DNA from: a virus
Virus record (IMG/VR): IMGVR_UViG_3300044644_001125
Location: 83,623 to 147,622 of that record
Direction: 5' to 3' (one strand)
Length of the DNA stretch: 64,000 nt
Part shown: positions 12,858-63,555 of the stretch, in pieces
How the letters are laid out: each line of letters begins with the position of its first letter
How positions within the stretch are numbered: the stretch's first letter is position 1
The notes under the pieces: model-generated
What the model was told of the DNA's origin: nothing
Database searches by the model: none
What the model saw: only the letters and a program-made list of their open reading frames with translations
Position numbers and translations under genes: made by a program

Positions 12858-12868
12858 ATGTATGTTGT

Positions 12869-13945: not shown

Positions 13946-13951
13946 AGAAAT

Positions 13952-15218: not shown

Positions 15219-15293
15219 GTTGTTTACTCCGTAGTGCTTTGTTAAGGTGGGTATATTCTAGTTGAAATATACCCAGTTGTCAACTATTTGTTT

Positions 15294-15557
15294 TTAGATT
15301 AGTCTGTTTTGTTTCATTACAGCGCATTCAATACTATTGACTTTGGCAGTACCGCATTTACCACCACCAATGTTTCTGAATGTCACGCTATCACCTAAGA
15401 CTTCTACTGTTCCTACTTCTACCACATCACCAAACTCTTTTACATAGAGTTGAATATGACGTGCTGGTTCGTATTGGAAGAATCCATTGTCCTCCTCGTC
15501 AAACAATTCCAAGTAAGGTAATAAATCAGCAAAGGTGGTTTCTGTCATTGTGTACAT
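15294..15557 (-). CDS. hypothetical protein; paralog of 14320-14580
   Basis: See 14320-14580. Confidence 0.55.
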   Translation of the reverse strand: MYTMTETTFADLLPYLELFDEEDNGFFQYEPARHIQLYVKEFGDVVEVGTVEVLGDSVTFRNIGGGKCGTAKVNSIECAVMKQNRLI

Positions 15558-15624
15558 GGATATTCTCCGTAGTGCTTTGTTAAGGTGGGTACATTCTAAA
15601 AGAAAATACCCACCATGTCAATCT

Positions 15625-16338
15625 TTATTTTGTGCGAATAACGAATCCGCTAGTATCTTTTTTCGCGCGTCCTTTGGCTTTCAATCCAATAACCAAGTCT
15701 AGGTTAGTATTATTGAATCTTAAGTCATCCAAGTCACCATCAACTACAGGAACACCATTCCAAGTGGCGGGTACTTCATCGAATACCACTGCAATAGAGT
15801 AACCTTGTTCCAATGCTTTCATTACGTCTGCATCGTTTGATTCTGCTCTACTGAATGTTAAATGGTAGTTACCTAGGTGCTTAACCTTACGATTAAGAAT
15901 CTTACTGTAGTCGTAGAATTGTACTGTAGGGAAGTGTTCAAACACGTTCTTACCACCAACGTAAATGTTTTCCCATAGAATGTCACTTGTACCATTTAAA
16001 CGGAATACAGGTGTCATACCTTTACGCTCTGCTTGTTTAATGGCTTTTGTTATATCAGTGATTAAGGTTTCCATGAAAACCTCTCTGTTTGTTTTAAAGA
16101 ACACGGTTCTACGTTTACGAGCCTCTTGTACCGCGTTAGTGGTTTCACCTGCTTTAAACATACCACCATGTCCAGCAGTATTCAAACAAGCCGCTCTGCA
16201 TCCAGCAGTAGCCTTTGGGCAAGTGTTCATTACACCAGATAAGTCACTTGGTGCTAGGTGAAGAATGTAGGATTTATAACCTTGTGATTCACCTTTAATG
16301 ATTTTAAGGTTTGAAGTAGTGAGAAGTGAAAATGCCAT
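15625..16338 (-). CDS. hypothetical protein with Cys-cluster (CPKATAGCRAAC)
   Basis: 237-aa ORF with class-A cassette. No motif confidently assigned. Confidence 0.6.
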   Translation of the reverse strand: MAFSLLTTSNLKIIKGESQGYKSYILHLAPSDLSGVMNTCPKATAGCRAACLNTAGHGGMFKAGETTNAVQEARKRRTVFFKTNREVFMETLITDITKAIKQAERKGMTPVFRLNGTSDILWENIYVGGKNVFEHFPTVQFYDYSKILNRKVKHLGNYHLTFSRAESNDADVMKALEQGYSIAVVFDEVPATWNGVPVVDGDLDDLRFNNTNLDLVIGLKAKGRAKKDTSGFVIRTK

Positions 16339-16409
16339 TGTAGTAACTCCGTAGTGCTTTGTTAAGGTGGGTACATTGTATTCTCAATGTACCCATTTGT
16401 CAAATCTTT

Positions 16410-16604
16410 TTATCCGATTGCTTGTAACAAGTACGCGTATGTGATTTCTTTCTTCGTTCCTTTTGGTAAACCTAGCAACTGGCAAGCCATTGTATTAGCC
16501 GATTTTCCACGACCTTTCAATCCTTTGATTTCTAATCCAAGTGCTGATTTCAAGGTTAATAACTGGAATCTGTTGATTTGTTCTGGTGTAGTTAATACGC
16601 TCAT
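16410..16604 (-). CDS. hypothetical basic small protein
   Basis: 64-aa ORF. Upstream: hairpin-A8-TTGACA...TATACC-leader. Confidence 0.5.
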   Translation of the reverse strand: MSVLTTPEQINRFQLLTLKSALGLEIKGLKGRGKSANTMACQLLGLPKGTKKEITYAYLLQAIG

Positions 16605-16689
16605 CTTTGTAACTCCGTAGTGCTTTGTTAAGGTGGGTATAGTTTAGTGGATCTTTACCCTGTTGTCAACTCTTTTTTTTCTTCTTATT

Positions 16690-16712
16690 GGCTCGTGCCT
16701 ATCGGCACTCGC
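16690..16712. repeat. GC-hairpin element
   Basis: ggctcgtgcctatcggcactcgc adjacent to A-run and -35. Confidence 0.6.
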
Positions 16713-16997
16713 AAACAAGTGGGTACATCCTACTCGAAAATACCCACCTTGTCAAATCTTCTTTTAGTGTGATGCAATTATCGAATCATTGGACAATGAA
16801 AACCAATAACCACGTCGCTTATAGTCTGCAATGATTGCAAAGGCCTCCTCCTCTGGCATAGCTTGCAGCTCGTCCAAGTCTAGTTTAATCGAATCATTAC
16901 GTGGTTTTGTGCCTAGTATAAATGTCGGTTCGTTCATTTTGTTTGCTCCTGTATGTTTATGTTTCGGCGTATAGCCTACCAGTAGTTAGCCGAGTTG

Positions 16998-17189
16998 TCA
17001 ACAACCCACTAACTCATCATACAGTTCTTGGTAAACACTGCCTTGGTATGCACCATCATCAAAGTCCATGACAGCACATCTCTCAATAAAATCCAGATTG
17101 GATTCACCCTCATATTGCTCGTACAGCACAGAATACTTCTCATAAGCCTCTGGGATTTGTTTAACTTTCTCAATATATGAATCTATCAT
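16998..17189 (-). CDS. hypothetical acidic protein
   Basis: 63-aa ORF; TTGACA upstream. Confidence 0.45.
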   Translation of the reverse strand: MIDSYIEKVKQIPEAYEKYSVLYEQYEGESNLDFIERCAVMDFDDGAYQGSVYQELYDELVGC

Positions 17190-17245
17190 CGTAGTATCCT
17201 CTTGGGTTTAAGTTGGCATTAGTCTACCAAGTTACTGGTTACTTG

Positions 17246-17446
17246 TCAACTCTGTATACCAAACTCCCTATCAATCCACTCCTGCTCATCTGGATACACA
17301 TAAGTGAAGATGACTTCCCCATCTTTTAGGGATCTCAAATCCTCCATGAAGTCATGGGGATACAGGATGTCTGCGCCTTCAGGCAGAACTGATGAGTCGA
17401 TGATGGTTACGCCAGTTGCTGTTGTTGCTTGTAAGTAGTTTGCCAT
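17246..17446 (-). CDS. hypothetical acidic protein
   Basis: 66-aa ORF. CTAAAAGATAAT-gc-TTGACA upstream. Confidence 0.45.
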   Translation of the reverse strand: MANYLQATTATGVTIIDSSVLPEGADILYPHDFMEDLRSLKDGEVIFTYVYPDEQEWIDREFGIQS

Positions 17447-17525
17447 GCGGTTTCTCTGGGTTGTGGTTATTTGTGGGTACAGTCTAAAAGATAATTAACC
17501 CAATGTCAAGCATTATCTTTTAGGC

Positions 17526-17558
17526 ATAAAAAAGCCATCGTTTTTCGATGGCGTTTTT
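17526..17558. terminator. bidirectional rho-independent terminator
   Basis: AAAAAA-GCCATCG-ttttt-CGATGGC-GTTTTT. Confidence 0.65.
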
Positions 17559-17562
17559 GATT

Positions 17563-17868
17563 TTATTTAGCACCAGCCCTTACTAAAAGATCATTGACTA
17601 TCTCTTCACAGCGTGGTGAATGGCATTCAACCCTTTTGATCCGCTCTACCATCGCAGGATCTGGTATGTATGCAGCGGGTACGAAGTACCATACCTGCAT
17701 TAATATAACCCCTACCTGCATTCCAAGGATCGCACATATCCCAAGTGTATTCCACGGACTTTCCCTCCATAGCTCAATGAACTTAAGTTTACCTACATGG
17801 ATTAACGTAACAATCCATACAAACCCACCTATCCATAGTGCGGTTATTACGAATGACTCTAATGACAT
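17563..17868 (-). CDS. membrane protein (multi-TM)
   Basis: 101-aa hydrophobic ORF. Class-B leader at 17869-17915. Confidence 0.55.
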   Translation of the reverse strand: MSLESFVITALWIGGFVWIVTLIHVGKLKFIELWRESPWNTLGICAILGMQVGVILMQVWYFVPAAYIPDPAMVERIKRVECHSPRCEEIVNDLLVRAGAK

Positions 17869-17915
17869 TTTCTTCTCCTATACGTGTATATGCATGATGC
17901 TCACAGCGGGTAACC
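17869..17915 (-). promoter_or_regulatory. class-B leader/promoter element (representative)
   Basis: Gene orientation TTACCCGCTGTGAGCATCATGCATATACACGTATAGGAGAAGAA-ATG. Same architecture at 375-420, 9990-10030, 18120-18180, 18421-18440, 18838-18850, 21746-21840, 21976-22020. Confidence 0.5.
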
Positions 17916-18119
17916 TGACTCTACCATACGTGCACACTCAATAGCTTCCAGTGCACTAGCACGGATAGTCTTGAAATCTATCTGATCAGCATCCCAAGTG
18001 GCCTGCCAAACAAACTGCCACCAGAACTTCCAATGCTTCCGGTATACATGAATCTCTACTGCATTCTTACCTGCATAGAAAATCCGGGCCTGGTAGATAC
18101 CATCATCAACTTTTAACAT
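17901..18119 (-). CDS. hypothetical protein
   Basis: 72-aa ORF with class-B leader ACCCGCTGAAGG..CATATAGGAGAGCACAC-ATG. Confidence 0.5.
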   Translation of the reverse strand: MLKVDDGIYQARIFYAGKNAVEIHVYRKHWKFWWQFVWQATWDADQIDFKTIRASALEAIECARMVESGYPL

Positions 18120-18859: not shown

Positions 18860-18882
18860 GCGAGGCACGCTAGTGCCGAGCC
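18860..18882. repeat. GC-hairpin element (GCGAG-gcac-gcta-gtgc-CGAGCC)
   Basis: Covarying stem variant. Confidence 0.6.
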
Positions 18883-20663: not shown

Positions 20664-21134
20664 CTTATTCTTCCTATGGTTTGTGTTACCAGTTCTCTGA
20701 TCAAACCACCCCTAATTCGGTTGGCCAACCTAGCTAGGGGTTTAAGAAAAATGATTATGATCAATCGAACTTTTAACTCATGTATTTAGTACAGGACCTC
20801 CATTATCTTTTAGTCGAATTAATACTATCACAGCCATAACCAATCAGTCAACTAATATATCTAAAAGATAACTTCATTAATAGTTCAATTATCTTTTAGT
20901 GATATAGACCATCAATAGTTCAATTATCTTTTAGTGATATCTCCAATTGCTCGATGGATTTCTTGTGCAATTACTAGAGGGATTCTGAGGAGAATCCAGG
21001 AGAAGAAGCAAAGACCAAGGAAGCCACCAAAGGCATAAGGAGAAGATCAACAAATCTCTTCTCCCTTAGGGAGACACTTTTTCGGTCTGCAGGCCGCATT
21101 CTATATATACCTGATTATGACAGTTATGTTACAA

Positions 21135-21156
21135 GCTCGTGCCTACCGGCACTCGC
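21135..21156. repeat. GC-hairpin element
   Basis: gctcgtgcctaccggcactcgc. Confidence 0.55.
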
Positions 21157-21202
21157 AATCGAAAAAATTCACACACTAGTCAACCCAGGGAACTTTTCAG
21201 GC

Positions 21203-21229
21203 AATAAAAAGGCAGAACTAAGTCTGCCT
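21203..21229 (-). terminator. rho-independent terminator after 21254-21745
   Basis: Minus strand GGCAGA-cttagt-TCTGCC followed by TTTTTATT. Confidence 0.5.
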
Positions 21230-21253
21230 GTGTATGAGTCAAATACATCATTG

Positions 21254-22125: not shown

Positions 22126-22148
22126 GCGAGCACCGCTAGGTGCGAGCC
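22126..22148. repeat. GC-hairpin element (GCGAG-cacc-gcta-ggtg-CGAGCC)
   Basis: Covarying stem variant. Confidence 0.6.
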
Positions 22149-23226: not shown

Positions 23227-23275
23227 GCGAGTGCCGATAGGCACGAGCCATTGACTCGCACCTATCGGTGCTCGT
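23227..23275. repeat. two tandem GC-hairpin elements in opposite orientation
   Basis: gcgagtgccgataggcacgagcc + actcgcacctatcggtgctcgt. Confidence 0.6.
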
Positions 23276-24269: not shown

Positions 24270-24569
24270 TCAACTTTCTCTAGGGGAGAAAGTCATCTTT
24301 TTTACTAATACCAACATCCTCTTTATGTTAGGTCTAGTAACAGATAAGGCAATCTGCACTGCATCGTCCTCTATCCACAAGTTAACATACGGATTATCGT
24401 AGTACATATCATTAACATCCGCTATAGTCAAAGGTCTCCAGTGTTCAGCTTGGGCGAATGCGTATAGCTTCGCTTCCGTGTATGTCAACGGTATTGGTGC
24501 TATATGGGTTGTTTCTTGAGTTTCTTGGGTCGCGAGCACCGATAGGTGCGAGCCATTGTCAGTTGACAT
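24270..24569 (-). CDS. hypothetical protein
   Basis: 99-aa ORF. Start overlaps stop of 24559-24846. Confidence 0.45.
   Translation of the reverse strand: MSTDNGSHLSVLATQETQETTHIAPIPLTYTEAKLYAFAQAEHWRPLTIADVNDMYYDNPYVNLWIEDDAVQIALSVTRPNIKRMLVLVKKMTFSPRES
24273..24302 (+). terminator. possible plus-strand terminator in intergenic region
   Basis: CTTTCTC-tagg-GAGAAAG followed after 5 nt by TTTTTT. Spacing makes it weak. Confidence 0.35.
24533..24555. repeat. GC-hairpin element (inside coding overlap region)
   Basis: gcgagcaccgataggtgcgagcc. Confidence 0.55.
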
Positions 24570-24846: not shown

Positions 24847-25173
24847 TGTGAATTCTCCTAGTGGTTTGTCTCAATATAGCCCATTTTGAGGGTGCTGTCA
24901 AGTGATCTTTTAGCGTAAGATAGCGTACTTTAGAAAAAAGTTTTCGACTTTTAAAAACACTTCATCGATGTCGATCGAGTATAAACAATATGGGATAAAG
25001 GGAAAAAACACACACGAAAATACTCCAGATTTATAAACGTAAGTCATTGATTTATAAGGGTTAAATACGTGTATTTTTGGTTATTTTCATGCTAAATACT
25101 GGTTTTAGGCTCCTTCGCATTCGCTCAGTCGCAAGTCAAATATCGACTAAAAATCAGTAATATTCGAACAAAT

Positions 25174-25195
25174 GCTCGTGCCTAGCGGCACTCGC
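25174..25195. repeat. GC-hairpin element
   Basis: gctcgtgcctagcggcactcgc in AT-rich 360-bp noncoding region. Confidence 0.55.
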
Positions 25196-25246
25196 AACTG
25201 TATTATGTAAGGTATTATATAGGGTATTATGTAAGTCAATTATCTT

Positions 25247-26713: not shown

Positions 26714-27199
26714 TCAATCTATATATTCAGTTACTCCACGACTTACTGTTAACTGATTGATAATTTGATCATCAGTTTTAGCTTCACACAATTTTTCATT
26801 TACTTTACCCCAGTGAAAAGTAGAATTATACTGCCTATTAAAAATGGGGTTTAGTTGACTAATTAACGATATTTCTAATATCTCAGCATTAGTGATGTTT
26901 TTGGTAATGCATACATCAACATTATCCATCAAAGGAGTAACCTTTTGTAAATCAGTTAAATTGTATTTTAACAAGTTGCTAACGTTAGATAACGTTAAAT
27001 GCGTTGACAGTCTAGTTCGTAAATTAGCAGCCTTGCCAATGTAGAGTAACTCTGATTGTTTAGTATATATCAAGTATACTCCGCAATTATCAGGTCGGTT
27101 AATTTCAACTGGTACATCAATGTTATATTTGAACCAGTTCTTTATATTAACTCTATCATATTCAATGCTAATATTGGTAGTTTCTTTCATCTGTTTCAC
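26714..27199 (-). CDS. GIY-YIG nuclease domain protein (small homing-endonuclease-like)
   Basis: CGVYLIYTKQSELLYIGKAANLRTRLSTH matches GIY-x10-YIG...R...H. Confidence 0.6.
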   Translation of the reverse strand: MKQMKETTNISIEYDRVNIKNWFKYNIDVPVEINRPDNCGVYLIYTKQSELLYIGKAANLRTRLSTHLTLSNVSNLLKYNLTDLQKVTPLMDNVDVCITKNITNAEILEISLISQLNPIFNRQYNSTFHWGKVNEKLCEAKTDDQIINQLTVSRGVTEYID

Positions 27200-27217: not shown

Positions 27218-27240
27218 GGCTCGCCACTAGCGTGGCTCGC
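27218..27240. repeat. GC-hairpin element (GGCTCG-ccac-tag-cgtgg-CTCGC)
   Basis: Covarying stem variant just upstream of GIY-YIG gene. Confidence 0.6.
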
Positions 27241-38832: not shown

Positions 38833-39360
38833 TTAGACATTCCTAACCGGAATAGTAACCCTGTTACTATCTAAATCCTCGAAGTCATATTCATCATCTT
38901 CGAATCCATAAGTGGTAACAGGCCCATCACTTGGCATTTCATAGGGACGAGAACCATACACGTGATTCTCCTCGTCGTAGAATGGTTCAGTAGATGTATA
39001 CACCCAGTTTTCTTGTTTCAATGCTGTTAGTAAATTGGGTTCTGCTTGTTTACGAATAATCTCGCATTCATAAACAGTTGGTAATCGCCATCCAATCTTA
39101 CCATCGATATTCAAAGAAAAGCAATACAACTTTGCATGCTCAAAAAGAAAGTCTTGACTCCAATAATCCCTCGGTGAAATCTCAAGTTTAGCATAATCCA
39201 ACTCGTCAGCTTTGTTATGTAACGCAATAGCAAATTCACGTGCAGTTGCTGTATCAACCTCACCAACTGATGCCCAACTAATGGTAGATGGATTTACTGT
39301 TTCAAAATCAACAGAAGATATGTACGGTTCAGAAACCGTTATCAATTTTTTAACGTTCAT
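38833..39360 (-). CDS. two-domain protein with C-terminal DUF1566-like domain
   Basis: C-terminal LYCFSLNIDGKIGWRLPTVYECE...IPVRNV. N-terminal 80 aa unrelated. Confidence 0.55.
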   Translation of the reverse strand: MNVKKLITVSEPYISSVDFETVNPSTISWASVGEVDTATAREFAIALHNKADELDYAKLEISPRDYWSQDFLFEHAKLYCFSLNIDGKIGWRLPTVYECEIIRKQAEPNLLTALKQENWVYTSTEPFYDEENHVYGSRPYEMPSDGPVTTYGFEDDEYDFEDLDSNRVTIPVRNV

Positions 39361-39752: not shown

Positions 39753-39998
39753 TTAAGGATTGTCAATAGTTCTTACTGCTCTGACTGACAAGTTCTGATC
39801 AACCAAGTAATCGTCATCAGATGACCAATACCAAGCCCAGTGCGAAGATTCGGAATTTTTAGAAAGTTCTTTAAGCTCGTCACTTGTTGGTAATCTCCAA
39901 CCTATCTTACCATCAACACTAAGAGAAAAGCAATACAATTTTGCAGCATCTAATGAATTAGTGAATGTTTCGGTTTCGATTGGTGACAACTCAATCAT
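39753..39998 (-). CDS. DUF1566-like small protein
   Basis: MIELSPIETE..LYCFSLSVDGKIGWRLPTSDEL..YWSS..VRAVRTIDNP. Confidence 0.6.
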   Translation of the reverse strand: MIELSPIETETFTNSLDAAKLYCFSLSVDGKIGWRLPTSDELKELSKNSESSHWAWYWSSDDDYLVDQNLSVRAVRTIDNP

Positions 39999-40282
39999 AG
40001 CGTTCTGACTGGTCTAGCCTGCGAAAGCATTGTGGGTAAGTGCTCTATTGTAGTGACTCCACCGTATTGGATATGGAAGATGCAACCATGATTGTTGTCT
40101 TTTGCATTGATCCAGCATGAGCCTGGAACTTCAATATCCATTCGTCCTAGTTCTTGCATTTCAGATATAGTAGGTAAACGCCATCCAGTTTTACCGTCGA
40201 TGTTTAATGAAAAACAATATACAATTGCTTCATCAATAGTTAAGGTCTTTTCGTATTCAGGTGGTGATAATTCAAAGTGCAT
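39995..40282 (-). CDS. DUF1566-like small protein
   Basis: MHFELSPPEY..VYCFSLNIDGKTGWRLPTISEM..ARPVRTL. Confidence 0.6.
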   Translation of the reverse strand: MHFELSPPEYEKTLTIDEAIVYCFSLNIDGKTGWRLPTISEMQELGRMDIEVPGSCWINAKDNNHGCIFHIQYGGVTTIEHLPTMLSQARPVRTL

Positions 40283-40329: not shown

Positions 40330-40416
40330 GCGAGGCACGTTAGTGCCGAGCCATTACTAATATCCGGGAGTGTGTTAATATTATGGTTATGATTGCGAGG
40401 CACGTTAGTGCCGAGC
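40330..40416. repeat. pair of GC-hairpin elements (GCGAG-gcac-gtta-gtgc-CGAGC) upstream of HNH gene
   Basis: Copies at 40330-40352 and 40395-40416. Confidence 0.6.
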
Positions 40417-40514
40417 TAATCTCTCTTTTTCTGTTATAAGGATAAATAAGTGTAGTCCACGGATTTGGCGATCCTGACTACTTTAGAACTATTAACTTTA
40501 GAGGAGTTCCAACT

Positions 40515-41822
40515 ATGACTATTTATGCCAAAATTTTAGCAACAAAAGAACACAACGAACGTCAACTAAGAATCTACGTAAAATACATCGCAAAATGTGC
40601 AGTATTAAACGAGAATCTTTCAGAAGATACCTACACAGAGCTTCATCATATCTGCCCTAGAGTATTCTTTCCTGAATACAAAAATCTAAAAGATCATCCT
40701 TGGAATGGGATACGATTAACACTAGGCCAACACTTCACAGCCCATTTGATTCTTTCAAACGCATATACGTTTAACGGTGCTATGTCTCAAGCATTTTACC
40801 TTATGTGCACACAGAATGGAAGTAAAGGTCAAGCAGTTGTTGATAGGTTCAAAAACTTGAAAACCTACTACGAAGATGCTCGTAACCTAGTCATCAACTC
40901 TCAACGCGGTTTAACTATGGTTAAAAACAAAGAAACCGGTGTGTTTGGTCTGATTCCGGTAGAAGAGTACACTGCAAATCCTGATTTATACGAAACTGCC
41001 ACTACTGGCATGGTAACAGTTCGCGATATTGAAACCGGTGAAATAATGAGTATGTCATGCGAAATTTACCACGCGAATAAGGACAAGTTTACTGCCATGA
41101 ATACTGGAATCGTGCACGTCACAGACAAATTGACTGGTGAGAAGAAACGCATACCATCAGAAGAATATCAAGCAAATAAAGAAAGCTACACAACTTCTGG
41201 GTCTGGAGTGACTACTGTTAGAGAATTAGCAACTGGTATTGTAATGAGTGTACCCGTCGATGAGTACTCAAACAATAAAGATCGATTCGAAAGCATTGTT
41301 ACTGGAACTACAACTGCAAGATTAATAAGCACCGGTGAGATGGTTGTTATCCCAGTAGAAACATACCATGCAAATCGTGATTTATACGAAACTGCTACTA
41401 CTGGTCTATTGACTGCAAAAAACAAATTAACAGGTGAATCTGTTAGATTGACCAGAGAGGAATATGAGGCAAATAAGGATTTGTATCACTTCCACACATC
41501 TGGAGTGTCAGTTATATCGACTATTACCGGTAAGAAATCGCGCATATCATGGGATGAATTTGAAAACAATCCTACCTTGTATTATAGAGTAAGCAATGTA
41601 CGGTCAATATACGAACTAGGGAGTTACTCAAAACCAATAGATTATGTAAAACTACCACACGAAGTCAGTAATAAGTCCAGTTGGGTTCATAACCCAACCA
41701 CTGGTGAATGTAAAAAGATATCAAAACACGAATACGTTGAATTAGATTGGTTAGCTGGTATCACACCAGAATATAAAAAACAATTAGAACGTGAACGTTA
41801 CCATGCTAACAAAGTAAAGTAA
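40515..41822 (+). CDS. HNH homing endonuclease with C-terminal ~28-aa tandem repeats
   Basis: MTIYAK..ELHHICPRVFF..WNGIRLTLGQHFTAH (HNH). At least 8 repeats of TG..T(V/A)R..(E/T)G. Conserved leader AAGGATAAATAAG..CGGAT..GGC shared with 48072-49133. Confidence 0.7.
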   Translation: MTIYAKILATKEHNERQLRIYVKYIAKCAVLNENLSEDTYTELHHICPRVFFPEYKNLKDHPWNGIRLTLGQHFTAHLILSNAYTFNGAMSQAFYLMCTQNGSKGQAVVDRFKNLKTYYEDARNLVINSQRGLTMVKNKETGVFGLIPVEEYTANPDLYETATTGMVTVRDIETGEIMSMSCEIYHANKDKFTAMNTGIVHVTDKLTGEKKRIPSEEYQANKESYTTSGSGVTTVRELATGIVMSVPVDEYSNNKDRFESIVTGTTTARLISTGEMVVIPVETYHANRDLYETATTGLLTAKNKLTGESVRLTREEYEANKDLYHFHTSGVSVISTITGKKSRISWDEFENNPTLYYRVSNVRSIYELGSYSKPIDYVKLPHEVSNKSSWVHNPTTGECKKISKHEYVELDWLAGITPEYKKQLERERYHANKVK

Positions 41823-42217: not shown

Positions 42218-42282
42218 AGCTCGAGCCTATCGGCTCTCGCAAATTCACATAACCCAACAAGCTCGGCACTAACGTGCCTCGC
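42218..42282. repeat. pair of GC-hairpin elements downstream of HNH cassette
   Basis: agctcgagcctatcggctctcgc and gctcggcactaacgtgcctcgc. Confidence 0.6.
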
Positions 42283-42354: not shown

Positions 42355-43110
42355 ATGGAGGGTTTGTACGTGAAGAAATTACTAACCGTGGCTATCAATA
42401 GCTACAATGTTGCACCGCTACGCGGTTGCGTAAATGACAGCAATAATATACTAAATGTGTGCGCAGCTAATGGTTATCAAACAGTTCAACTTATTGAAGA
42501 CCAAGCAACCAAACACAATATTATGACTAAGTTACTAGAAATCAGCAAAGAACTAGTTGACGGAGATAAGTTTATGTTTCACTACTCTGGTCATGGTTCA
42601 CAAATTCCATGCAACGATGGCACTGAAACCGATGGTTTAATGGAAGTGCTTTGCCCATTTGATTTAATCAATCCGAATGGTAGTTGGAACAATACATTCA
42701 TCATGGATAACGAGTTACATGATATATTCTGTCAGTTTGCACCAGGTGTTGAAATCGAATGCTTACTTGATTGCTGTCATTCAGGTACTGCAACTAGAGA
42801 TTTAAAACCAAATGTTGCTTATCGTTATATTAGTGCAGGTGTTATCAACTCAGAACCTATGGTTATTAAGTTTAATGTCTCTTGTACACGTGAAGTTATC
42901 TGTTGGTCTGGGTGTAAAGACGAACAAACATCTGCTGATGCATTCTTAGATGGTACGTATCAAGGTGCATTTACAGCAGCACTGCTAAAAACTACAGGTA
43001 CTAGACGTGAACGATTTGCAATGCTTACTGCTATTTTAAAGCAAGTTGGCTTTCCGCAAGAGCCGCAGTTAACTTGCGCGGAATCTCTGTTGGATCAACC
43101 TTTGTTTTAA
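42355..43110 (+). CDS. caspase-like (peptidase C14) domain protein
   Basis: His site FHYSGHGS and Cys site LLDCCHSGTA in canonical order and spacing. Start may be GTG at 42370 after GGAGGG. Confidence 0.65.
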   Translation: MEGLYVKKLLTVAINSYNVAPLRGCVNDSNNILNVCAANGYQTVQLIEDQATKHNIMTKLLEISKELVDGDKFMFHYSGHGSQIPCNDGTETDGLMEVLCPFDLINPNGSWNNTFIMDNELHDIFCQFAPGVEIECLLDCCHSGTATRDLKPNVAYRYISAGVINSEPMVIKFNVSCTREVICWSGCKDEQTSADAFLDGTYQGAFTAALLKTTGTRRERFAMLTAILKQVGFPQEPQLTCAESLLDQPLF

Positions 43111-43249
43111 TTCTGTACTGGCTTGCTATTTCGGATACTGCGGCATGCCAATTGGCTTCAGTATCCAAACTACCATTTAACCACCGGTAATAAGCAGCTT
43201 CTTCGACCATCTTGCTGTATTGTGTGTAATTAACTAAACCGCTTCTCAT
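43031..43249 (-). CDS. hypothetical protein (uncertain; overlaps 3' end of caspase gene)
   Basis: 72-aa ORF. Start codon overlaps stop of GT gene by 4 nt. Has a convergent 80-nt overlap with 42355-43110. Confidence 0.35.
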   Translation of the reverse strand: MRSGLVNYTQYSKMVEEAAYYRWLNGSLDTEANWHAAVSEIASQYRIKTKVDPTEIPRKLTAALAESQLALK

Positions 43250-44247
43250 CTTACACCTACCAAGTTTGATTTAAAGATTTCCCAGCAATTCTCCCAAGTC
43301 CATTTGGCAGCACTAGACTTCACTGTCTCACGGTCCAAATGTAAGCATTTCGTGATAGCATACTCTAAGTTTTCATTCATCACGCCATTGACTCCTTGCA
43401 CAAGTATATCAATTGGACCAGGAACTGGATACGCAGCAACACCACACCCCATAGCCAGCGCTTCGATAATAACAATCCCGAATGTATCTACACGGCTTGT
43501 GAATACAAATACATCTGCTTGGTTATAATACTCTGCTAACTCAACACCATGTTTGTATCCAACGAAGTTTACTAGCGGATAACGTTCCTCAAGCTCTGCT
43601 CTATGTGGACCATCACCAATAACAGTAATTGCATAAGCAGGATTAACCGATAACTCACATAAGTCTTCAATGCCTTTTTCTTTAGAGACTCGACCAACTG
43701 AAAGTAACTTAATCTCGTTATCAGAAGTTCTTGGTTCAGTTGGAATGAACTTTTCTCGGTCAACGCCACGTGTCCAAGGAATAACAGGAACTTTGAAACC
43801 GTGTACTTGTAATTCTTTAACCATACTCGTAGTTGTAGTTAATACTAAATTAGAACGAGCATGGAACCAACGAACATAAGCATAGGTTAAGAACTCAGGA
43901 ATGTTATACAGCGTCTTAACAAACTCTGGAAAACGCGTATGATAGGATGTGTTGTATTTGTACCCATTAAAACAGCACCAGTTACGAACTGCCACCCCAA
44001 TAGGCCCTTCGGTACTGATGTGAATAAAATCTGGGTTAATTGATTTGATAAGTTTACCAACCCCAAATGGAATGCTTAACTTGACTTCTGGGTATCTAGG
44101 TGCAGAAAAGTAACAGAAGTCACTAGGTGTAATATACTTTACCTGATAACCATCTAGCAGTGCTTGCTTTTCAATATTAACAAAGGTAGTTACTACCCCG
44201 TTGATTTGACCATGAAGATTGTCTGATACTATTAAAATTGTTTGCAT
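43246..44247 (-). CDS. GT4-family (GT-B) glycosyltransferase
   Basis: 333 aa. C-terminal VGRVSKEKGIEDL..VIGDGP..LEE pattern of retaining GT4 enzymes. Confidence 0.7.
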   Translation of the reverse strand: MQTILIVSDNLHGQINGVVTTFVNIEKQALLDGYQVKYITPSDFCYFSAPRYPEVKLSIPFGVGKLIKSINPDFIHISTEGPIGVAVRNWCCFNGYKYNTSYHTRFPEFVKTLYNIPEFLTYAYVRWFHARSNLVLTTTTSMVKELQVHGFKVPVIPWTRGVDREKFIPTEPRTSDNEIKLLSVGRVSKEKGIEDLCELSVNPAYAITVIGDGPHRAELEERYPLVNFVGYKHGVELAEYYNQADVFVFTSRVDTFGIVIIEALAMGCGVAAYPVPGPIDILVQGVNGVMNENLEYAITKCLHLDRETVKSSAAKWTWENCWEIFKSNLVGVR

Positions 44248-44402
44248 TCTGCGACTACCTTGAACCCTGAGAATTTTAGTTTGTACTCTAACGTTTTAGC
44301 TGTTTGAATACATTCTTGTTCTGATTTTAAATTTAGTTTGATTTCCCCTGGAATGTCAGTTGGATCAAACAGGTTAATTGCGAGTAAGACTAAGGTCCAC
44401 AT
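44230..44402 (-). CDS. unlisted small ORF (57 aa) using cassette-type SD
   Basis: ACGGAGTTAAAGT-ATG mimics the conserved leader. Not in the six-frame track (<60 aa). Confidence 0.35.
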
Positions 44403-44542
44403 ACTTTAACTCCGTTGTTTGGTTAGTTTGTATTCTCTATCTTGTTTTATCATCTCTTTGATGATGATTGGTGATATTAAAATCACGATGATGGTTACAA
44501 CGGTATTAACTGCAATTGTGAAAAGACATTTGCCCACTTGTT
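44403..44542 (-). CDS. unlisted small hydrophobic peptide (GTG start)
   Basis: GGAGAAACAAGTG start context mimics GGAGTAAACAAGATG. Single TM. Confidence 0.3.
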
Positions 44543-44586
44543 TCTCCTAACTTAAATGTATTTAAGAAGAGTATAACATGTAAGTA

Positions 44587-45015
44587 TTACAGGAGTGTGT
44601 CAGTTGGTTCTAAAAGATAATCTAAATCATCTTTTAGGTCAGGGAATTGGTTCTTTAGCCTAGCAGCCAATGACTTCTGTAGTTTGTTATTCTTAGTATT
44701 ACCAGTACCAGATTCGTTATGTGAGAACAAACCAAACAAATATAGTTTTGATGGTGAACCAGCTATTCGGTATACTATGCTAATATCCTGTGACAAATGC
44801 GCATGTTTAAGTTTCATTTTTCCAAGAGGACCATCCGAGTTGTATGGATAATCAGACGATCCAAATTTCTGGGCTGGGTTTTGTGCTTTCATTCGAATGA
44901 AGTCATTTGCCTTATTTTCCAATGTTCGATACTTAATAAGTGATTCGTCATACGCAGGACACATTTCAACCTTAAGCATCAGCTTCACCACTGCAGATTT
45001 TTCTATTATGTGCAA
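44587..45015 (-). CDS. RelE/YafQ-fold-like protein (possible toxin)
   Basis: C-terminal KHAHLSQDISIVYRI..LYLFGLFSH resembles YafQ H..xD..LIYK...F.TGTH. Confidence 0.4.
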   Translation of the reverse strand: MHIIEKSAVVKLMLKVEMCPAYDESLIKYRTLENKANDFIRMKAQNPAQKFGSSDYPYNSDGPLGKMKLKHAHLSQDISIVYRIAGSPSKLYLFGLFSHNESGTGNTKNNKLQKSLAARLKNQFPDLKDDLDYLLEPTDTLL

Positions 45016-45160
45016 TAGCTTCTTCGACTGTCATTTCAGTCCATGGTCCATTAAGTGCAGCATCCAATATCTTAGCACGGTCTTCATCACTGAACAACTG
45101 ATCATCGTCAGGTCTTGCAAATTCATTTAATCTCATCGTTTTCTCCTCTTGTATTTTCAC
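44972..45160 (-). CDS. small protein with GPWTxMTxEE repeat unit
   Basis: One copy of a ~30-aa unit present three times across 44972-45455. Confidence 0.45.
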   Translation of the reverse strand: MKIQEEKTMRLNEFARPDDDQLFSDEDRAKILDAALNGPWTEMTVEEAIAHNRKICSGEADA

Positions 45161-45455
45161 AAAGTTTTCGGGTATGCTCTATCATCTCATCTGCCGTTCT
45201 AGTAACCCATTTGCCATTTTCAGCAGCATCTAAAACTGTAGCAATATCTTCTTCACTAAAATGATCGCCACACGCGCAGTATTCTACATCTTCTTCATTA
45301 TCTTTTAGTGCAGACTGGGCAATCTTATCATGCAACTCAAGTAACTCTTCTAAAGTCATTTTAGTCCAAGGACCATTCTCAGACGCGATTATTCTAGCAA
45401 TATCCGCTTCACTAATCAAGTCATATTCGTTTGTGAATTCTTCATCTTCGTCCAT
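45123..45455 (-). CDS. acidic protein with two GPWT/GKWV repeat units
   Basis: ENGPWTKMTLEELLELHDKI and ENGKWVTRTADEMIEHTRKL. Confidence 0.5.
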   Translation of the reverse strand: MDEDEEFTNEYDLISEADIARIIASENGPWTKMTLEELLELHDKIAQSALKDNEEDVEYCACGDHFSEEDIATVLDAAENGKWVTRTADEMIEHTRKLCENTRGENDEIK

Positions 45456-45456
45456 A

Positions 45457-47759: not shown

Positions 47760-47809
47760 TGTTTGTAATTATAACTTAAAGATAATTGATGTCAAGTTCA
47801 TGATTGATT

Positions 47810-47935
47810 GCGAGGCCTGATAGGGCCGAGCCTAATGTTAATGCGTTATTTGCTCTTCTTGATTAATGTAATTACTTGCGAGGCCTGATAGGGCCGAGCC
47901 TTGCTGTATTTTGCGAGGCCTGATAGGGCCGAGCC
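47810..47935. repeat. three tandem GC-hairpin elements (GCGAG-gcc-tgatag-ggc-CGAGCC)
   Basis: Copies at 47810-47832, 47878-47900 and 47913-47935, directly upstream of HNH gene. Confidence 0.65.
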
Positions 47936-48071
47936 TTTGTTTAGGTAGATTCTATTATCTTTTAGAAAGGTTGTCAAGAGGTTTTCTTAGTGGAAGGATA
48001 AATAAGGGTGTAACTCGCGGATGGCCGTCCCAGTTACTCTAATGCTTTCAATCTTACAGGAGAACATCAGC

Positions 48072-49133
48072 ATGACTATTTATACGTTTGAAAAAGTAAC
48101 AGAATTACTTACAGAATTAAACTTGGAAACAGTTTATCACGGGAAACGTGAACCTCATATCAAATCTAAGTATCCAGATATACACCGAGCAGTTTATGAT
48201 ACAACCTCGTTCTTGGTAAAACCAACGTTTACTGAACGTTTATTCTACTATGCAAACGGTGTAACATCAATTGAACAAATACCAGAATGTAAATGGTGTG
48301 GAAAACCTGTCAATTACAGTATACAGGCTCGTGCATTTAATGATTTTTGTTCAAGTAACACTGGATGTGGTTTTAAATATTTCTGTGAACAGAATGGTGT
48401 TGAGGGTTCAGCTCAGTTGCAATCAGTTAAAGATTCGTATAAAGCAACCTGTTTAAAAAAACACGGTGTTGATAATGCGAGTAAATCACCTGCAGTTCGT
48501 GCTAAGATATCAGCTGGTAAGAAAGCTGGAAAAGATAGAGCAATGGTAGATCTAGTTGAACATCTCGGATGTACTCCGTTGAATATGACAAAGGACGAGT
48601 ATTATCTAGCAGTAACTCGTATTACCGAACACGCATATTCCAGAAATATCGACACCCTAGACCCAGATAGACTAAGATCACCCGATTACCATATCGACCA
48701 CCAAGTCAGTATTTTTTATGGGTACCAAAACGAAATTCCTCCATTTATAATTGGTGATATAACCAATCTTAGAATGATGGATCGCACTAGTAATATATCT
48801 AAAGGATATCGTAATTCTATTACAATTCACGAACTAATTGCGAAATATAACAACCACTATGGCACCGACGAGCAAGCACCATTAACCGAAAATCTTGAAA
48901 TACCTAAAGCTCAAATCGGTGTTGATAATGGTTTGAAGATGACGTACTACGTTGAAGAAGCAGGTGTATGTCATGTATGCGGTGGTGAGGCTCATTATAT
49001 GCGAAAAGATGATGGATCCCACCAGTGTACACCACAGAAGAAGCATTGTCCAGAGATGCAAAAATACTACCTTGAACTAAAAAAACAGAGATACAAACAG
49101 AAAAGACTTTTGGAAAATCAAACGTCTCAGTAA
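48072..49133 (+). CDS. HNH homing endonuclease (MTIY family)
   Basis: DYHIDHQVSIFYG...NLRMMDRTSNISKG HNH core. Starts MTIYTF like 40515. AGGAGAACATCAGC-ATG SD. Conserved leader shared with 40440-40514. Confidence 0.7.
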   Translation: MTIYTFEKVTELLTELNLETVYHGKREPHIKSKYPDIHRAVYDTTSFLVKPTFTERLFYYANGVTSIEQIPECKWCGKPVNYSIQARAFNDFCSSNTGCGFKYFCEQNGVEGSAQLQSVKDSYKATCLKKHGVDNASKSPAVRAKISAGKKAGKDRAMVDLVEHLGCTPLNMTKDEYYLAVTRITEHAYSRNIDTLDPDRLRSPDYHIDHQVSIFYGYQNEIPPFIIGDITNLRMMDRTSNISKGYRNSITIHELIAKYNNHYGTDEQAPLTENLEIPKAQIGVDNGLKMTYYVEEAGVCHVCGGEAHYMRKDDGSHQCTPQKKHCPEMQKYYLELKKQRYKQKRLLENQTSQ

Positions 49134-52406: not shown

Positions 52407-52673
52407 TTATTTTAGAGTTTTTGAAATCTTTTCTGCTGGAATGCTCCATTCTTTCATTGTTCCATTATCAAATGTATTCTTTACGTAAGCAAAGAAACGT
52501 TTTTGCAATGCAGGATCCAACGAGTCCAATTTTTGTCTGGCGCTTGGAATGTCAATTATTTCTGATTTAAGCAACGCGGACCAAGAAATAGAAAGATCTC
52601 GTAGTTCTGCATCGGTAAATTCAGATGCATTGTTTTCTGGTATGATTAAAGAATCGATAATGTCAGTAGTCAT
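52407..52673 (-). CDS. hypothetical protein
   Basis: 88-aa ORF with identical promoter to MoxR gene. Confidence 0.5.
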   Translation of the reverse strand: MTTDIIDSLIIPENNASEFTDAELRDLSISWSALLKSEIIDIPSARQKLDSLDPALQKRFFAYVKNTFDNGTMKEWSIPAEKISKTLK

Positions 52674-53023
52674 GATATTTACTCCAGTATTAATGTTAAG
52701 TGTAGTTTAAATCTAAAAGATGATGTTGTCAAGTATTTAATTTGGTTCGTTTCATCTTGGGTTACATTCTATTCCTAAAAGATAATGCTGTCAAGTGTTA
52801 TTTTCTAGGTTTCTCGTCTCGGTGACGATGTGGCTATTATAGACTAAAATTAGATGTTGTCAACAGTTATTTTCAAAAAGTTTTCTAAACTGTTATTCAA
52901 TTATCTTTTAGGTCAATACTGCCAACCACGAAACGAATCATACACTATAGGTATATAGGTGTCAACTGACTTTAAATAAAATCATACTAAATACAATATA
53001 TCATTACCACTTGAACTAATAAA
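52674..53023. promoter_or_regulatory. non-coding region with four CTAAAAGAT(G/A)ATG(T/C)TGTCAA repeats preceding tnpB
   Basis: Copies near 52713, 52774, 52838 and 52900 (the last inverted). Confidence 0.4.
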
Positions 53024-54360
53024 ATGACCAGCATCATCAAAACCAGTCAACATAGTACCAAGTTTGCCAATACAGGCAAGCAGGATATATTGTCTGAATT
53101 TTTAACCGAATATGATAGAATGATATGGTGGTTTGTTGATTACTTATGGGAAACTAAGATCGTGTGGGGATTAAATCAAGTACTAGACGTGAAGAATAAT
53201 CGTTTAGATGTACCTAATTTTATCAATACCGCAGATATAGAATACCATTCCGATTTATCAGCTAGGGCTATAAAATTAGCATCTAGCGAAGCTCTCGCGT
53301 TAGTCAAAGGGCAAACAGAAAAAAGAAGAAAGCAATTCCACGTTCTAGCTAAAAACATGAAAATGGGAACTGTCGGAGAGGTTAAACGACTTCAATCAAA
53401 AATAGATAGCAATCCTCTCACAAAACCAACTACTAATTCCAAAAACCCAAGTGCTAGACTCGATAGTATGTGTTGCAAGTACATACCAACAGAATCGTCA
53501 ATATTCGATGGATGGCTTAAACTCAAATCGATTGGTAAGGTATACGGTCATATCTTCATTCCAATTAAGTTAACCAAACATTCTAATAAGTTAGCCAAGA
53601 AAGGATATTCGATGATGACAACTTGGCGCATTTGTAATAATGTGGTTTCTTCGACTTGGCAAATTGAAAGAAAACCAAGCAGTGGAACTAAAGTTTTAGG
53701 CGCTGACCAAGGAATTAGTACGTGTCTATCACTAAGCGATAGTCAGACCACTGGGGTTTGTAAACATGGACATGATTTAAAATCAATTATAAATAAGCTA
53801 TCAAAAAAGAAAAAGGGTAGTAAGGCTTTTGCTAAGGCACAAGCCCATAGAACCAATTATATCAATTGGTCAATTAACCAATTAAACCTACAAGATGTCA
53901 AAGAACTCAGGCTTGAAAAGTTATTTCAGATGAGGAAGGGTCATAATATAGGTAAACTATTAAGTCATTGGACTTACACACAAATCAATGCACAGATAAA
54001 AAGCAGATGCGAGGAACTAGGCGTCCTAGTTACCGAGCAATCCGCTGTTTATAGAAGTCAGAGATGCAGTGATTGTGGTTGGACGCAGAAATCAAATAGG
54101 AAGGGAAAGGAGTTTATATGCAAGTCATGTGGCCATCACATCGATGCGGATATAAATGGCGCCCTTAATCACGAAGTGGACTTATATCCGCTCCCTATGG
54201 GATTTCGTCATTTGAATATGAATAGAAAAGGTTTCTTTTGGTATGAAACCCAGCTATTCGATTCAACTGGTCAGGAGATTACAGTCCCTGACGTGAAAAA
54301 TATATAACTGTCAACCTTTTTCATAAGTATTAACATTGTATAACTGTCAATCGTTTTACG
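52940..54360 (+). mobile_element. putative TnpB-only IS element (IS1341-like); ends not defined
   Basis: tnpB on opposite strand to flanking backbone genes. TATAACTGTCAA direct repeat at 54304-54352 downstream of stop. Confidence 0.35.
53024..54307 (+). CDS. tnpB: IS200/IS605-family TnpB (OrfB) RNA-guided nuclease homolog
   Basis: C-terminal zinc finger CSDCGW..CKSCGH. RuvC-III IDADINGALN. 427 aa. No adjacent tnpA. Confidence 0.8.
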   Translation: MTSIIKTSQHSTKFANTGKQDILSEFLTEYDRMIWWFVDYLWETKIVWGLNQVLDVKNNRLDVPNFINTADIEYHSDLSARAIKLASSEALALVKGQTEKRRKQFHVLAKNMKMGTVGEVKRLQSKIDSNPLTKPTTNSKNPSARLDSMCCKYIPTESSIFDGWLKLKSIGKVYGHIFIPIKLTKHSNKLAKKGYSMMTTWRICNNVVSSTWQIERKPSSGTKVLGADQGISTCLSLSDSQTTGVCKHGHDLKSIINKLSKKKKGSKAFAKAQAHRTNYINWSINQLNLQDVKELRLEKLFQMRKGHNIGKLLSHWTYTQINAQIKSRCEELGVLVTEQSAVYRSQRCSDCGWTQKSNRKGKEFICKSCGHHIDADINGALNHEVDLYPLPMGFRHLNMNRKGFFWYETQLFDSTGQEITVPDVKNI

Positions 54361-63246: not shown

Positions 63247-63494
63247 TTGATATGAGCAACGTCATCGATGATAGTCATAGTGCCCTTACAACAAATATTC
63301 CATTTTGTTTCTCCATACTCAACTGTAGTTGAATCAGTAACTGGTACTGTAATATTTAACGATTTAACCAAATTCTCAACGCCATCTTCAAACACACGCC
63401 ATACTAGTGGTGTTTCGTTATTGTGCTTGGTATTAAATCTAATGTGATATTCTTTCATTTTTGTTTCCTTTAAATAGGTATTTAATGCTCGCAC
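63243..63494 (-). CDS. hypothetical protein
   Basis: 83 aa; 4-nt overlap with downstream gene. Confidence 0.5.
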   Translation of the reverse strand: MRALNTYLKETKMKEYHIRFNTKHNNETPLVWRVFEDGVENLVKSLNITVPVTDSTTVEYGETKWNICCKGTMTIIDDVAHIK

Positions 63495-63555
63495 CTAGCG
63501 GTGCTCGCAATATCTAAGTTAAGATACAAGTCGCGAGCACCGCTAGGTGCGAGCC
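63487..63555. repeat. two GC-hairpin elements in inverted orientation
   Basis: gctcgcacctagcggtgctcgc and gcgagcaccgctaggtgcgagcc; same stem variant as 22126-22148. Confidence 0.6.

Follow-up and report, generated by a model that had tools for sequence, protein, structure and literature searches.

What are the short, GC-rich hairpins that recur between the genes of a large phage whose GC content is only 37-40%, and do they act as RNA or as DNA? We addressed this question in a 64,000-nt stretch (positions 83,623 to 147,622) of the IMG/VR virus record IMGVR_UViG_3300044644_001125, hereafter the window, which covers 64 kb of a genome of about 270 kb or more; relatives were compared as contigs or loci labelled L###. 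The window holds 23 copies of a GC-rich hairpin of 23 nt with the form TT-GCGAG-N4-GNTA-N4'-CGAGC-C. At the locus that raised the question, the same sequence, GCGAGGCCTGATAGGGCCGAGCC, occurs three times on the plus strand (47810-47832, 47878-47900, and 47913-47935). We read these hairpins as DNA-level mobile or recombinogenic elements, similar to the repetitive extragenic palindromes (REPs) of bacteria, with a presumed partner activity, and we give this reading about as much belief as doubt.

The original prediction, made from the letters of the window, proposed a family of about 24 elements with complementary arms. The size of the family held up, and the exact number became 23: a covariance model run without filters found 20 canonical copies (38-46 bits), two with a short stem, and one diverged copy (10849-10871, minus strand), while a script demanding complementary arms found 22. 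The window has 15 matches to the exact pattern GCGAG-N8-20-CGAGCC, where shuffles lead one to expect 0.05, and 27 to CGAG-N8-20-CGAG, where 4.7 are expected. All of the clusters that had been pointed out are present (40330-40417, 42218-42282, and 47810-47935), as are two inverted pairs (23227-23275 and 63486-63555). An alignment of 47 distinct contexts gave the consensus TT-GCGAG-NN(C)C-GNTA-G(G)N'N'-CGAGC-C-(A/T), in which C6, G7, A8, G9, the G, T, and A of the loop, and C22-G25 are invariant; the 5' foot (T)TGCGAG and the 3' foot CGAGCC appear in 47 of 47. The repeated unit is the hairpin alone, as conservation ends at -2 and +23 and copies of the same allele at different sites have unrelated flanks. 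Adjacent copies often carry the same allele. Thirteen stem types are known so far across the phage clade, and those named beforehand were recovered as described, the exception being 'gcc/ggc', which proved to be GCCT/GGGC and to contain a T.G wobble.

RNAfold and DNA folding agree on the structure ((..(((((....)))))..)), whose predicted layers are G:C, C:G, a 2x2 G-A/A-G loop, G:C, four variable pairs, and a tetraloop. The outer CGAG cores had been described as direct repeats, which they are in sequence, but they are not left unpaired: in the modeled fold, the two facing tetranucleotides pair within the stem as a 'CGAG block' (C:G, sheared G:A, sheared A:G, G:C). The CGAG block is a solved, thermally stable DNA motif, and GNNA loops form a family of stable DNA tetraloops in which a sheared G:A pair closes the loop (PMC10085684). 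Folded in this way, the purine-rich strand could stack almost continuously into one mini-hairpin. The GCGAG strand is predicted to fold better than its complement, both as RNA (-12.6 versus -10.2 kcal/mol) and as DNA (-6.1 versus -5.5 kcal/mol); the complementary strand presents CTCG...CTCG with a TANC loop and has the weaker fold.

Pairing was assessed in a set picked without regard to it. Every one of the 64 CGAG-N12-CGAG occurrences in the window and the hairpin-bearing related loci has four of four arm pairs. Across the 47 distinct contexts, paired cells make up 99.7%, where shuffles give 78.4%, and double-change cells number 66 against 15.3; none of 500 shuffles matched the observed value in either measure. 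When the 3' partners were slid along, at most 39.5% of cells paired, compared with 99.7% in the true register. Pairs that are nearly invariant show rare compensated changes, namely G1:C22 to A:T in the copy at 23253 and G5:C18 to A:T in the copy at 10849. About 85 unrelated viral contigs match GCGAGNNNNGNTANNNNCGAGCC by chance, and their arms are almost never complementary. The argument from compensatory change to selection on the hairpin stood in part: selection for pairing is real and acts on a copying population, but the stems do not, for the most part, evolve step by step in place. Stem diversity consists mostly of discrete alleles: the same allele turns up at sites with no relation to each other, and at orthologous sites one allele is replaced by another as a whole, with stepwise in-place compensation a minor component.

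As had been noted, the copies are GC-rich, intergenic, and often placed between a stop codon and an A-run or -35 element. None of those in the window lies inside an open reading frame (ORF), and about 14% of gaps carry one. They sit 0-17 nt past stop codons in the local gene direction, 8-19 nt past a -10 element, between two promoters, or upstream of an A-run and -35; in 7 of 17 hairpin-bearing gaps a strong sigma-70-like promoter begins 9-32 nt downstream. Others lie between a canonical terminator and the next promoter (window 21134, L258 13149, and L010 1164). The window alone appeared sense-biased (about 11:5), but in the wider clade sample, scored with simple ORF calls, the 38 co-directional contexts among 62 unique sites comprise 21 copies in sense and 17 in antisense orientation. 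Although its sequence is strictly asymmetric between the strands, the element is indifferent to the direction of transcription. This random orientation disfavors an RNA processing site, one of the roles originally suggested. The view that the hairpins are not simple terminators fared better, as no T-tract follows any copy in the window in either orientation. The window has U-tract terminators of its own, sometimes beside a hairpin copy, and terminator scans returned a single entry that touches a copy (47889-47903), with a stem that differs from the element's own fold.

Comparison with relatives revealed turnover. L258 and L259 are 85-99% identical to the window between its positions 36 and 64 kb. 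A hairpin at 18425 of L258 is cleanly missing in the window (GTA-hairpin-CTTA versus GTA-AAC-TTA), and at 42260 the window has an extra 42-nt piece, a hairpin plus 19 nt, relative to L258. Even where the DNA of two relatives is 92-98% identical, a given site can carry different alleles (L027 and L042 versus L047; L057 versus L059). A 4.37-kb cassette of about ten genes in L010 is missing in L030; two direct CACC hairpins stand at its borders and the junction falls within the hairpin. Broken copies include 5' halves that end in the loop (L048 and L267), cuts at the 3' foot (L267 and L273), and an orphan 3' half (L261 and L267), and at L010 3715 a sense half is joined to an antisense half in a perfect-palindrome chimera. 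Upstream of one HNH-like ORF, relatives carry nested or merged hairpins (L267 2721-2900, L261 9193-9434, and L048 at about 694-716); in one nested example a GCCT copy is split at its 3' foot by a T-rich spacer and a CACC copy. ORF calls in the related loci are crude and the cases of presence and absence are few.

Most of the homing-endonuclease-like genes have a hairpin as a neighbor. The clusters had been said to flank two HNH homing-endonuclease genes, and they do adjoin endonuclease-like ORFs, but only the plus-strand ORF at 40515-41822 matches PHROG homing-endonuclease/HNH families; the other plus-strand ORF (48072-49133, first called as 48021-49133 before its true start was placed at 48072) has an HNH-like motif, HIDHxVS..N..NLRM..N..K, and no Pfam hit. 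A minus-strand GIY-YIG endonuclease-like gene (26714-27199; PF01541, E 7e-9) also lies directly downstream of a hairpin. Each of these three genes has one to three hairpins just upstream in sense orientation, and the HNH gene at 840-1766 is without one. Including a SegE-like GIY-YIG gene in L010, which starts 24 nt from a hairpin and opens the two-copy-bounded cassette described above, a hairpin adjoins four of five homing-endonuclease-like genes; for three of four in the window we estimate P at ~0.01 from the ~14% of gaps that carry a hairpin.

Both plus-strand ORFs are missing in L258 and L259, where each empty site holds one hairpin of another allele: CACC-GCTA in place of the two GCAC-GTTA copies and ORF 40515-41822, and CACC-GGTA in place of the three GCCT-GATA copies and ORF 48072-49133. 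Homologues of the HNH-like ORF (40-89% identity) are always at the same locus. Wherever the gap upstream of them was read (50-89% identity), two or three hairpins precede the ORF in every relative, and the proximal one mostly keeps GCCT...GGGC with its T.G wobble. As a separate observation, both plus-strand ORFs are preceded (40440-40514 and 47985-48071) by GGATAAATAAG, which resembles the T4 late promoter (TATAAATA) and is followed by a conserved foldable leader (GTAGTCCACGG...GACTAC and GTAACTCGCGG...GTTAC, respectively); the GGATAAATAAG motif is kept in the relatives L267, L270, L271, and L273.

An AAA ATPase that is 52% identical to a protein of the Pseudomonas jumbo phage PA5oct is the sole pointer placing this phage near PA5oct, and a megablast of 45-50 kb found no DNA match among GenBank phages. 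The hairpin family is confined to a tight group of contigs in IMG/VR and the other assemblies searched (JGI, ENA, and Logan assemblies, with one contig of 272 kb), and on this sampling it is restricted, among phages, to one clade of PA5oct-like jumbo phages. Neither the covariance model nor a pattern search found a copy in 57 loci (840 kb) of more distant relatives, defined as loci whose glycosyltransferase is 38-64% identical to that of the window; these loci show no substitute hairpin family, only ordinary terminators. A blastn search with the four commonest hairpin variants found no match among GenBank phages. An IMG/VR search returned no relatives of the HNH-like ORF, whose homologues were found via a protein database, or of a 593-aa ORF that borders another copy. 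Rfam at its gathering threshold identified only a tRNA in the window and no family on the window hairpins or the bacterial elements described next; for 47780-47960 it gave nothing at E up to 10.

In a scan of one genome per bacterial species, motif search located the same 23-nt core within larger, mosaic REP-like repeats. Nocardioides and other Actinomycetota carry GGTGGTTGAGGT-GCGAGGGCCGCTAGGCCCGAGCC-TCGAAACCACC, often in tandem, and Xanthobacteraceae, Hyphomicrobiales, and Pseudolabrys carry CCCTCTCCCC..GGGGAGAGGGTG-GCGAGCGCCGNTAGGCGCGAGCC-GGGTGAGGGG. Both repeats center on GCGAG-NNCC-GNTA-GGNN-CGAGCC, are often tandem with a period of 54-75 bp, and lie mostly between convergent genes (loci L171-L251, e.g. 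L235 2081-2328, L246, and L251; L206, L222, and L229). The Nocardioides copies are oriented 7:3, at few sites. A literature text search found neither the bacterial nor the phage hairpin sequences in any paper, and REP surveys recognize GTAG- and CGTC-tagged superfamilies, with CGAG not among them. The bacterial and phage families may be related by shared mechanism, by transfer, or by convergence. Single hairpins also occur next to RNA genes in L230, a 2.6-kb contig labelled as an archaeon metagenome-assembled genome, and in L193 (Saccharibacteria). In one case a 5S rRNA gene ends 180 nt before the hairpin, which has a canonical terminator behind it; in the other, the hairpin directly adjoins the 5' end of a tRNA gene encoded on the opposite strand.

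How might such an element work? Four features taken together favor DNA as the relevant form and a family that copies itself and recombines as REPs or mitochondrial GC clusters do: invariant, strand-specific non-Watson-Crick features are combined with random orientation to transcription; copies lie in spacers that are barely transcribed; the stable motifs are of the DNA type rather than GNRA or UNCG, the extra-stable tetraloop types of RNA; and there is turnover by insertion, loss, allele swap, and breakage. Since the feet (TT-GCGAG ... CGAGC-C) and the loop are conserved while the inner stem only has to pair, they would be the determinants read by a trans-acting, structure-specific activity of phage or host origin. 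A hairpin or cruciform would form, and cutting or recombination would then take place within its loop or at its 3' foot; such events would lead copies to be inserted, lost, allele-converted, or duplicated locally. The hairpins would also serve as junctions in gene-cassette exchange, above all of free-standing homing-endonuclease cassettes, and effects on transcripts, as a barrier or stabilizer at unit boundaries, would be secondary. We infer the DNA form, the dedicated partner activity, and the cleavage positions alike.

Several observations weigh against this reading. Pfam identified no transposase, HUH enzyme, or recombinase among 30 large and 91 small window ORFs, an unrelated TnpB aside, and we saw no target-site duplication. 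The one clean presence/absence case, at L258 18425, is set in DNA that is just 86% identical. The original proposal of a mobile element or a hotspot delimiting gene cassettes draws support from presence and absence, allele swaps, broken copies, and the 4.4-kb cassette, but not from a general enrichment of indels at hairpins: in a rough census of 30 indels or breakpoints, about 5-6 have a hairpin within 20 nt, close to the intergenic expectation, and when the window is compared with its closest relative, most of the cassette junctions fall in conserved promoter cassettes of the type CTAAAAGATAA-TTGACA. Many copies sit exactly past stop codons or a few nucleotides past -10 elements, as an RNA boundary element would, and the tandem G:A motif is stable in RNA too. 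The hairpin positions upstream of the HNH-like ORF, kept across homologues of 50-89% identity, look functional, not selfish. We hold the DNA-level reading at only about half because the window offers no partner enzyme and the evidence is that of sequence. A bolder version, which we consider doubtful, would make the CGAG-block hairpin the substrate of an undescribed system that transposes or recombines DNA specifically at hairpins. The hairpin would then be a third tag class next to the GTAG and CGTC REPs, and the system would operate in a clade of jumbo phages as well as in Actinomycetota and Alphaproteobacteria; in the phages it would resemble an attC-style junction through which gene cassettes, those of homing endonucleases included, are excised and pasted from genome to genome.

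The principal competitor, unlikely on balance but to be taken seriously, is an RNA-level boundary element that would stop 3' exonucleases, shield 5' ends, or dampen read-through from one of the dense early units to the next, in the manner of the promoter early stem-loops (PeSLs) of phages or the REP stabilizers of Escherichia coli. It accounts well for the placement of copies 0-17 nt past stop codons or 8-19 nt past -10 elements, for the seven hairpin gaps with a strong promoter close downstream, and for a hairpin that folds in both orientations, and there are precedents: PeSL stem-loops without U-tracts lowered reporter expression (PMC2839356), and phiKZ has a conserved terminator hairpin and terminators within 5' untranslated regions (PMC10914365). 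It sits poorly with a 21:17 orientation in which the strand-specific G:A pairs and GNTA loop are nonetheless invariant, given that a full Watson-Crick stem would be more stable both ways. Some copies, moreover, lie past a canonical terminator and before the next promoter, where little RNA is made; the window owns ordinary U-tract terminators; the GNTA loop is not of the GNRA or UNCG type; and more distant relatives do without the family. A landing pad for free-standing homing endonucleases, in which the hairpin is recognized or cut by HNH and GIY-YIG enzymes or serves as a homology island that resolves break repair, may be compatible with either the DNA or the RNA reading, though as an explanation of its own we judge it improbable. 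On this view, endonuclease cassettes would home beside hairpins and bring additional copies along. The association is suggestive, with a hairpin directly upstream of three of four such genes in the window, the SegE-like gene 24 nt from a hairpin at the start of its cassette, and a single hairpin of another allele at each empty site, which is what a co-conversion tract would leave. Yet at least three unrelated endonuclease families would need the same site, no endonuclease lies near about 13 of the 17 hairpin gaps, the HNH gene at 840-1766 lacks a hairpin, and the bacterial families go unexplained; intact CACC copies right beside the HNH-like ORF also argue that this allele is not destroyed.

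We regard as less probable still that the hairpin is a protein binding site or decoy, whether for a nucleoid, gyrase, or integration host factor (IHF)-type protein like those at bacterial REP/BIME elements, for an antitermination factor, or for a host defense nuclease titrated by a CRISPR-repeat-like mimic. Invariant feet and loop around a free stem are the usual mark of a protein-recognized hairpin, and there are several copies per genome, but no candidate protein has been identified, and turnover, broken copies, and allele swaps are unexplained by binding alone. The TGCC-GATA-GGCA stem superficially resembles the type I-F repeat hairpin, CUGCC-GUAUA-GGCAG, although spacing and flanks are unlike those of a CRISPR repeat. 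Bacterial REPs are reported to bind gyrase and IHF (PMC3479197 and PMC3733652). That these GC-rich intergenic hairpins are ordinary intrinsic (Rho-independent) terminators or chance palindromes is already refuted by the sequence, and we rejected it: no T-run follows the copies, orientation is 21:17, canonical terminators are separate and sometimes adjacent, and 15 exact matches stand against 0.05 expected. An N4-type hairpin promoter, a primase site, and a nut/boxB site were dropped for misfits of anatomy or orientation.

The individual copies are placed as follows. On the minus strand, a TGCC/GGCA copy with a GATA loop (9286-9308) starts 12 nt past the -10 of promoter 9349-9321, and the diverged copy (10849-10871; GCGA-A-CCGC-GTTA-GCGG-T-GAGC), in which the G:C above the G:A pairs has become A:T, begins 1 nt past a stop codon. 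A short copy (12833-12852, minus; GCGAG-CGC-AAC-GCG-CGAGCC) lies 16 nt past a stop codon, and a second of the same sequence (13147-13166, minus) falls within a 125-bp segment missing in the close relative L004. Two further minus-strand copies are TGCC-GATA: one (13923-13945) lies 6 nt past a stop codon and is followed by an A-run and promoter 13903-13875, and the other (16690-16712) is flanked by promoters 16755-16727 and 16669-16641. Three plus-strand copies are antisense: GCAC-GCTA at 18860-18882 overlaps the stop codon of the 593-aa ORF ahead of promoter 18831-18804, CACC-GCTA at 22126-22148 abuts the stop codon of an AraC-like helix-turn-helix gene ahead of promoter 22117-22089, and CACC-GATA at 24532-24554 lies 4 nt past a stop codon. 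TGCC-GGTA at 21134-21156 (minus) is about 50 nt downstream of the canonical terminator 21229-21210, within a 590-nt non-coding stretch; TGCC-GCTA at 25173-25195 (minus) is 16 nt past a -10 element, at the head of a non-coding stretch of about 330 nt; and CCAC-GCTA at 27218-27240 (minus) is 8 nt past the -10 of promoter 27277-27249 and 27 nt upstream of the GIY-YIG gene.

One inverted pair joins TGCC-GATA at 23227-23249 (plus) to ACGAG-CACC-GATA-GGTG-CGAGT at 23253-23275 (minus), which has its outermost G:C changed to A:T and lies 3 nt past a stop codon. The halves of the other, both CACC-GCTA, are 27 nt upstream of an ATG (63486-63508, minus) and 7 nt past a stop codon (63533-63555, plus); this pair is kept in L258. 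The pair upstream of ORF 40515-41822 consists of GCAC-GTTA copies at 40330-40352 and 40395-40417, both on the plus strand. On the minus strand, AGCC-GATA at 42218-42240 is kept in L258, and GCAC-GTTA at 42260-42282 is the copy within the 42-nt insertion. Of the three GCCT-GATA-GGGC copies with a T.G wobble, that at 47810-47832 has a CACC-GGTA copy as its L258 counterpart, that at 47878-47900 lies within a 1304-bp segment missing in L258 and L259, and that at 47913-47935 has a minus-strand promoter (47977-47949) that fires into it antisense. Two long non-coding stretches, 20664-21253 (590 nt) and 24847-25246 (400 nt), each open with a hairpin. The first holds several decayed remnants of CTAAAAGATAATTGA cassettes; the second starts directly after a promoter and could conceivably encode a small RNA.

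The window contains about 139 ORFs, mostly small, 116 of them on the minus strand, and in its first 18 kb nearly every gap has a strong TTGACA-N17-TAnAnT promoter. Transcription in PA5oct relies on the host RNA polymerase, and the long terminal repeat of that phage is packed with small early genes (PMC7318152), and the window looks like an early-gene terminal region of this type. Nearly all minus-strand gaps in window 1-18000 (e.g. 13130-13066, 13903-13840, and 9349-9321) are a repeated cassette of 70-90 bp, ordered as stop codon, CTAAAAGATAA, TTGACA-N17-TAnAcT, and ...ACCTTAACAAGCACTACGGAGTAAA-ATG. Many of these promoters bear their own variable inverted repeat over the spacer, -10, and +1 (GCGAGTAGTA-tat-TACTACTCGC and GGTGATAGTTT..AAACTATCACC), and indels relative to L001 and L004 are bounded by the cassette's 15-bp TAACCTAAAAGATAA repeat. 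These CTAAAAGATAA-TTGACA cassettes are the PeSL-like entity of this genome. The early leader ACCTTAACAAGCAC (e.g. 13095-13075) contains CTTAACAA, one base short of the boxA antitermination consensus, CTTTAACAA, and is a possible NusB/NusE site in early transcripts. Small genes are also gained or lost exactly at the ribosome-binding site and ATG, as with a 70-aa ORF present in L001 only (L001 467-689 versus window 12569/12570).

At 52967-54345 lies a 1379-bp tnpB-only element (TnpB-like ORF 53024-54307), a clean insertion relative to L258, L259, and L261. It is inserted in a promoter, with TTGAC-containing sequence on either side, which suggests TTGAC (-35) as its target, and five tandem promoter-like cassettes adjoin it (52672-52965). 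We rejected a link between the hairpins and this element, as its ends, set by the L258 comparison, carry no such hairpin. A glycosyltransferase block (43246-44247) is missing in L258 and L259, compared over window 43250-45456. The small ORFs of the window include nine Lcl_C-domain paralogues (e.g. 39995-40282 and 38833-39360), and other products of the window are a GroES-like Cpn10, a PAAR protein, a protein with a caspase domain (42355-43110), and a MoxR-like ATPase that is paired with a DUF2201/VWA protein.

Small palindromic repeats such as REPs, mitochondrial GC clusters, and PeSLs are known drivers of genome plasticity, and the literature we searched contains no description of a REP-like element that a lytic jumbo phage carries and turns over, nor of one whose stem is closed by a CGAG block. 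If the DNA-level reading is true, the hairpins offer a concrete, testable way into two questions: how giant phages exchange genes within their hyperplastic early regions, and what determines the landing sites of free-standing homing endonucleases. They would also point to the existence of a structure-specific enzyme. The reappearance of this 23-nt core in unrelated repeat families of bacteria would then suggest a partner activity common to both or else strong convergence toward a DNA mini-hairpin of unusual stability. In practical terms, the motif is a clean marker of the phage clade and, if it folds as modeled, a compact and very stable hairpin module.

Among known systems, the closest likeness is to REPs and REPINs, which are mobilized by Y1 transposases of the REP-associated tyrosine transposase (RAYT) type. 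These are short (20-40 nt), GC-rich, extragenic imperfect palindromes with a conserved foot and high copy number; they occur as singles, inverted doublets, and clusters, with several subfamilies per genome, and have been implicated in effects at both the DNA and mRNA levels. The 23 intergenic palindromes per 64 kb, two inverted pairs among them, fit this description. The hairpin differs in having CGAG feet on both sides with sheared G:A pairs, where the REP tag is a 5' GT[AG]G or CGTC (PMC3733652 and PMC6006769), in being just 23 nt long, and in being carried by a phage; no PF01797 or other transposase besides the unrelated TnpB is found among the window ORFs. The PeSL cassettes of T4-type phages (Arbiol 2010; Comeau 2014) are likewise stem-loops without a U-tract near strong sigma-70-like promoters in the hyperplastic early regions of large lytic phages, tied to the gain, loss, and swap of small ORFs, with crossovers mapped in the loop. 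A PeSL, however, is a composite of about 100 bp conserved throughout (stem-loop, AT-rich tract, sigma-70 promoter, and Shine-Dalgarno), with a stem-loop that often overlaps the promoter, whereas the hairpin here is a separate 23-nt unit with unrelated flanks and non-Watson-Crick feet, found in either orientation in ~14% of gaps.

Mitochondrial palindromic GC clusters (PMC4478555 and PMC2800124) offer an analogy only: they too are GC-rich intergenic hairpins in an AT-rich, endonuclease-rich genome, with rapid turnover, mergers, nested copies, recombination junctions, and no known transposase, but they are organellar, ~30-60 nt long, and of other sequence families with no reported CGAG block. 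The phiKZ terminator hairpin (PMC10914365) is another sequence-conserved hairpin repeated in jumbo-phage intergenic regions, yet its TTAT/U-rich tract, its alignment with transcription, and its position at transcript 3' ends have no counterpart in the sequence features of ours. Integron attC sites share the idea of a cassette bounded by hairpins, though neither a GTTRRRY core nor an integrase is present in the window; the ends of IS200/IS605 elements and of palindrome-associated transposable elements (PATEs) do not match, the TnpB insertion at 52967-54345 having no such hairpin at its ends; and the G:A pairs of the phage element form a symmetric 2x2 loop without the bulge of a kink-turn, although the Nocardioides version could offset its outer stem. 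The fold itself is matched by the AUTS2-promoter CGAG-block hairpins (PMC10085684) and by (GGCGAGCC)2-type tandem G:A duplexes, which share the pairing scheme and a GNNA-family loop with sheared G:A. These examples come from a human repeat tract and from model oligonucleotides; the likeness accounts for the fold but not for the biology. REP-like yet without the GTAG or CGTC tag, the hairpin is a phage-borne, 23-nt CGAG-block element with counterparts in bacteria.

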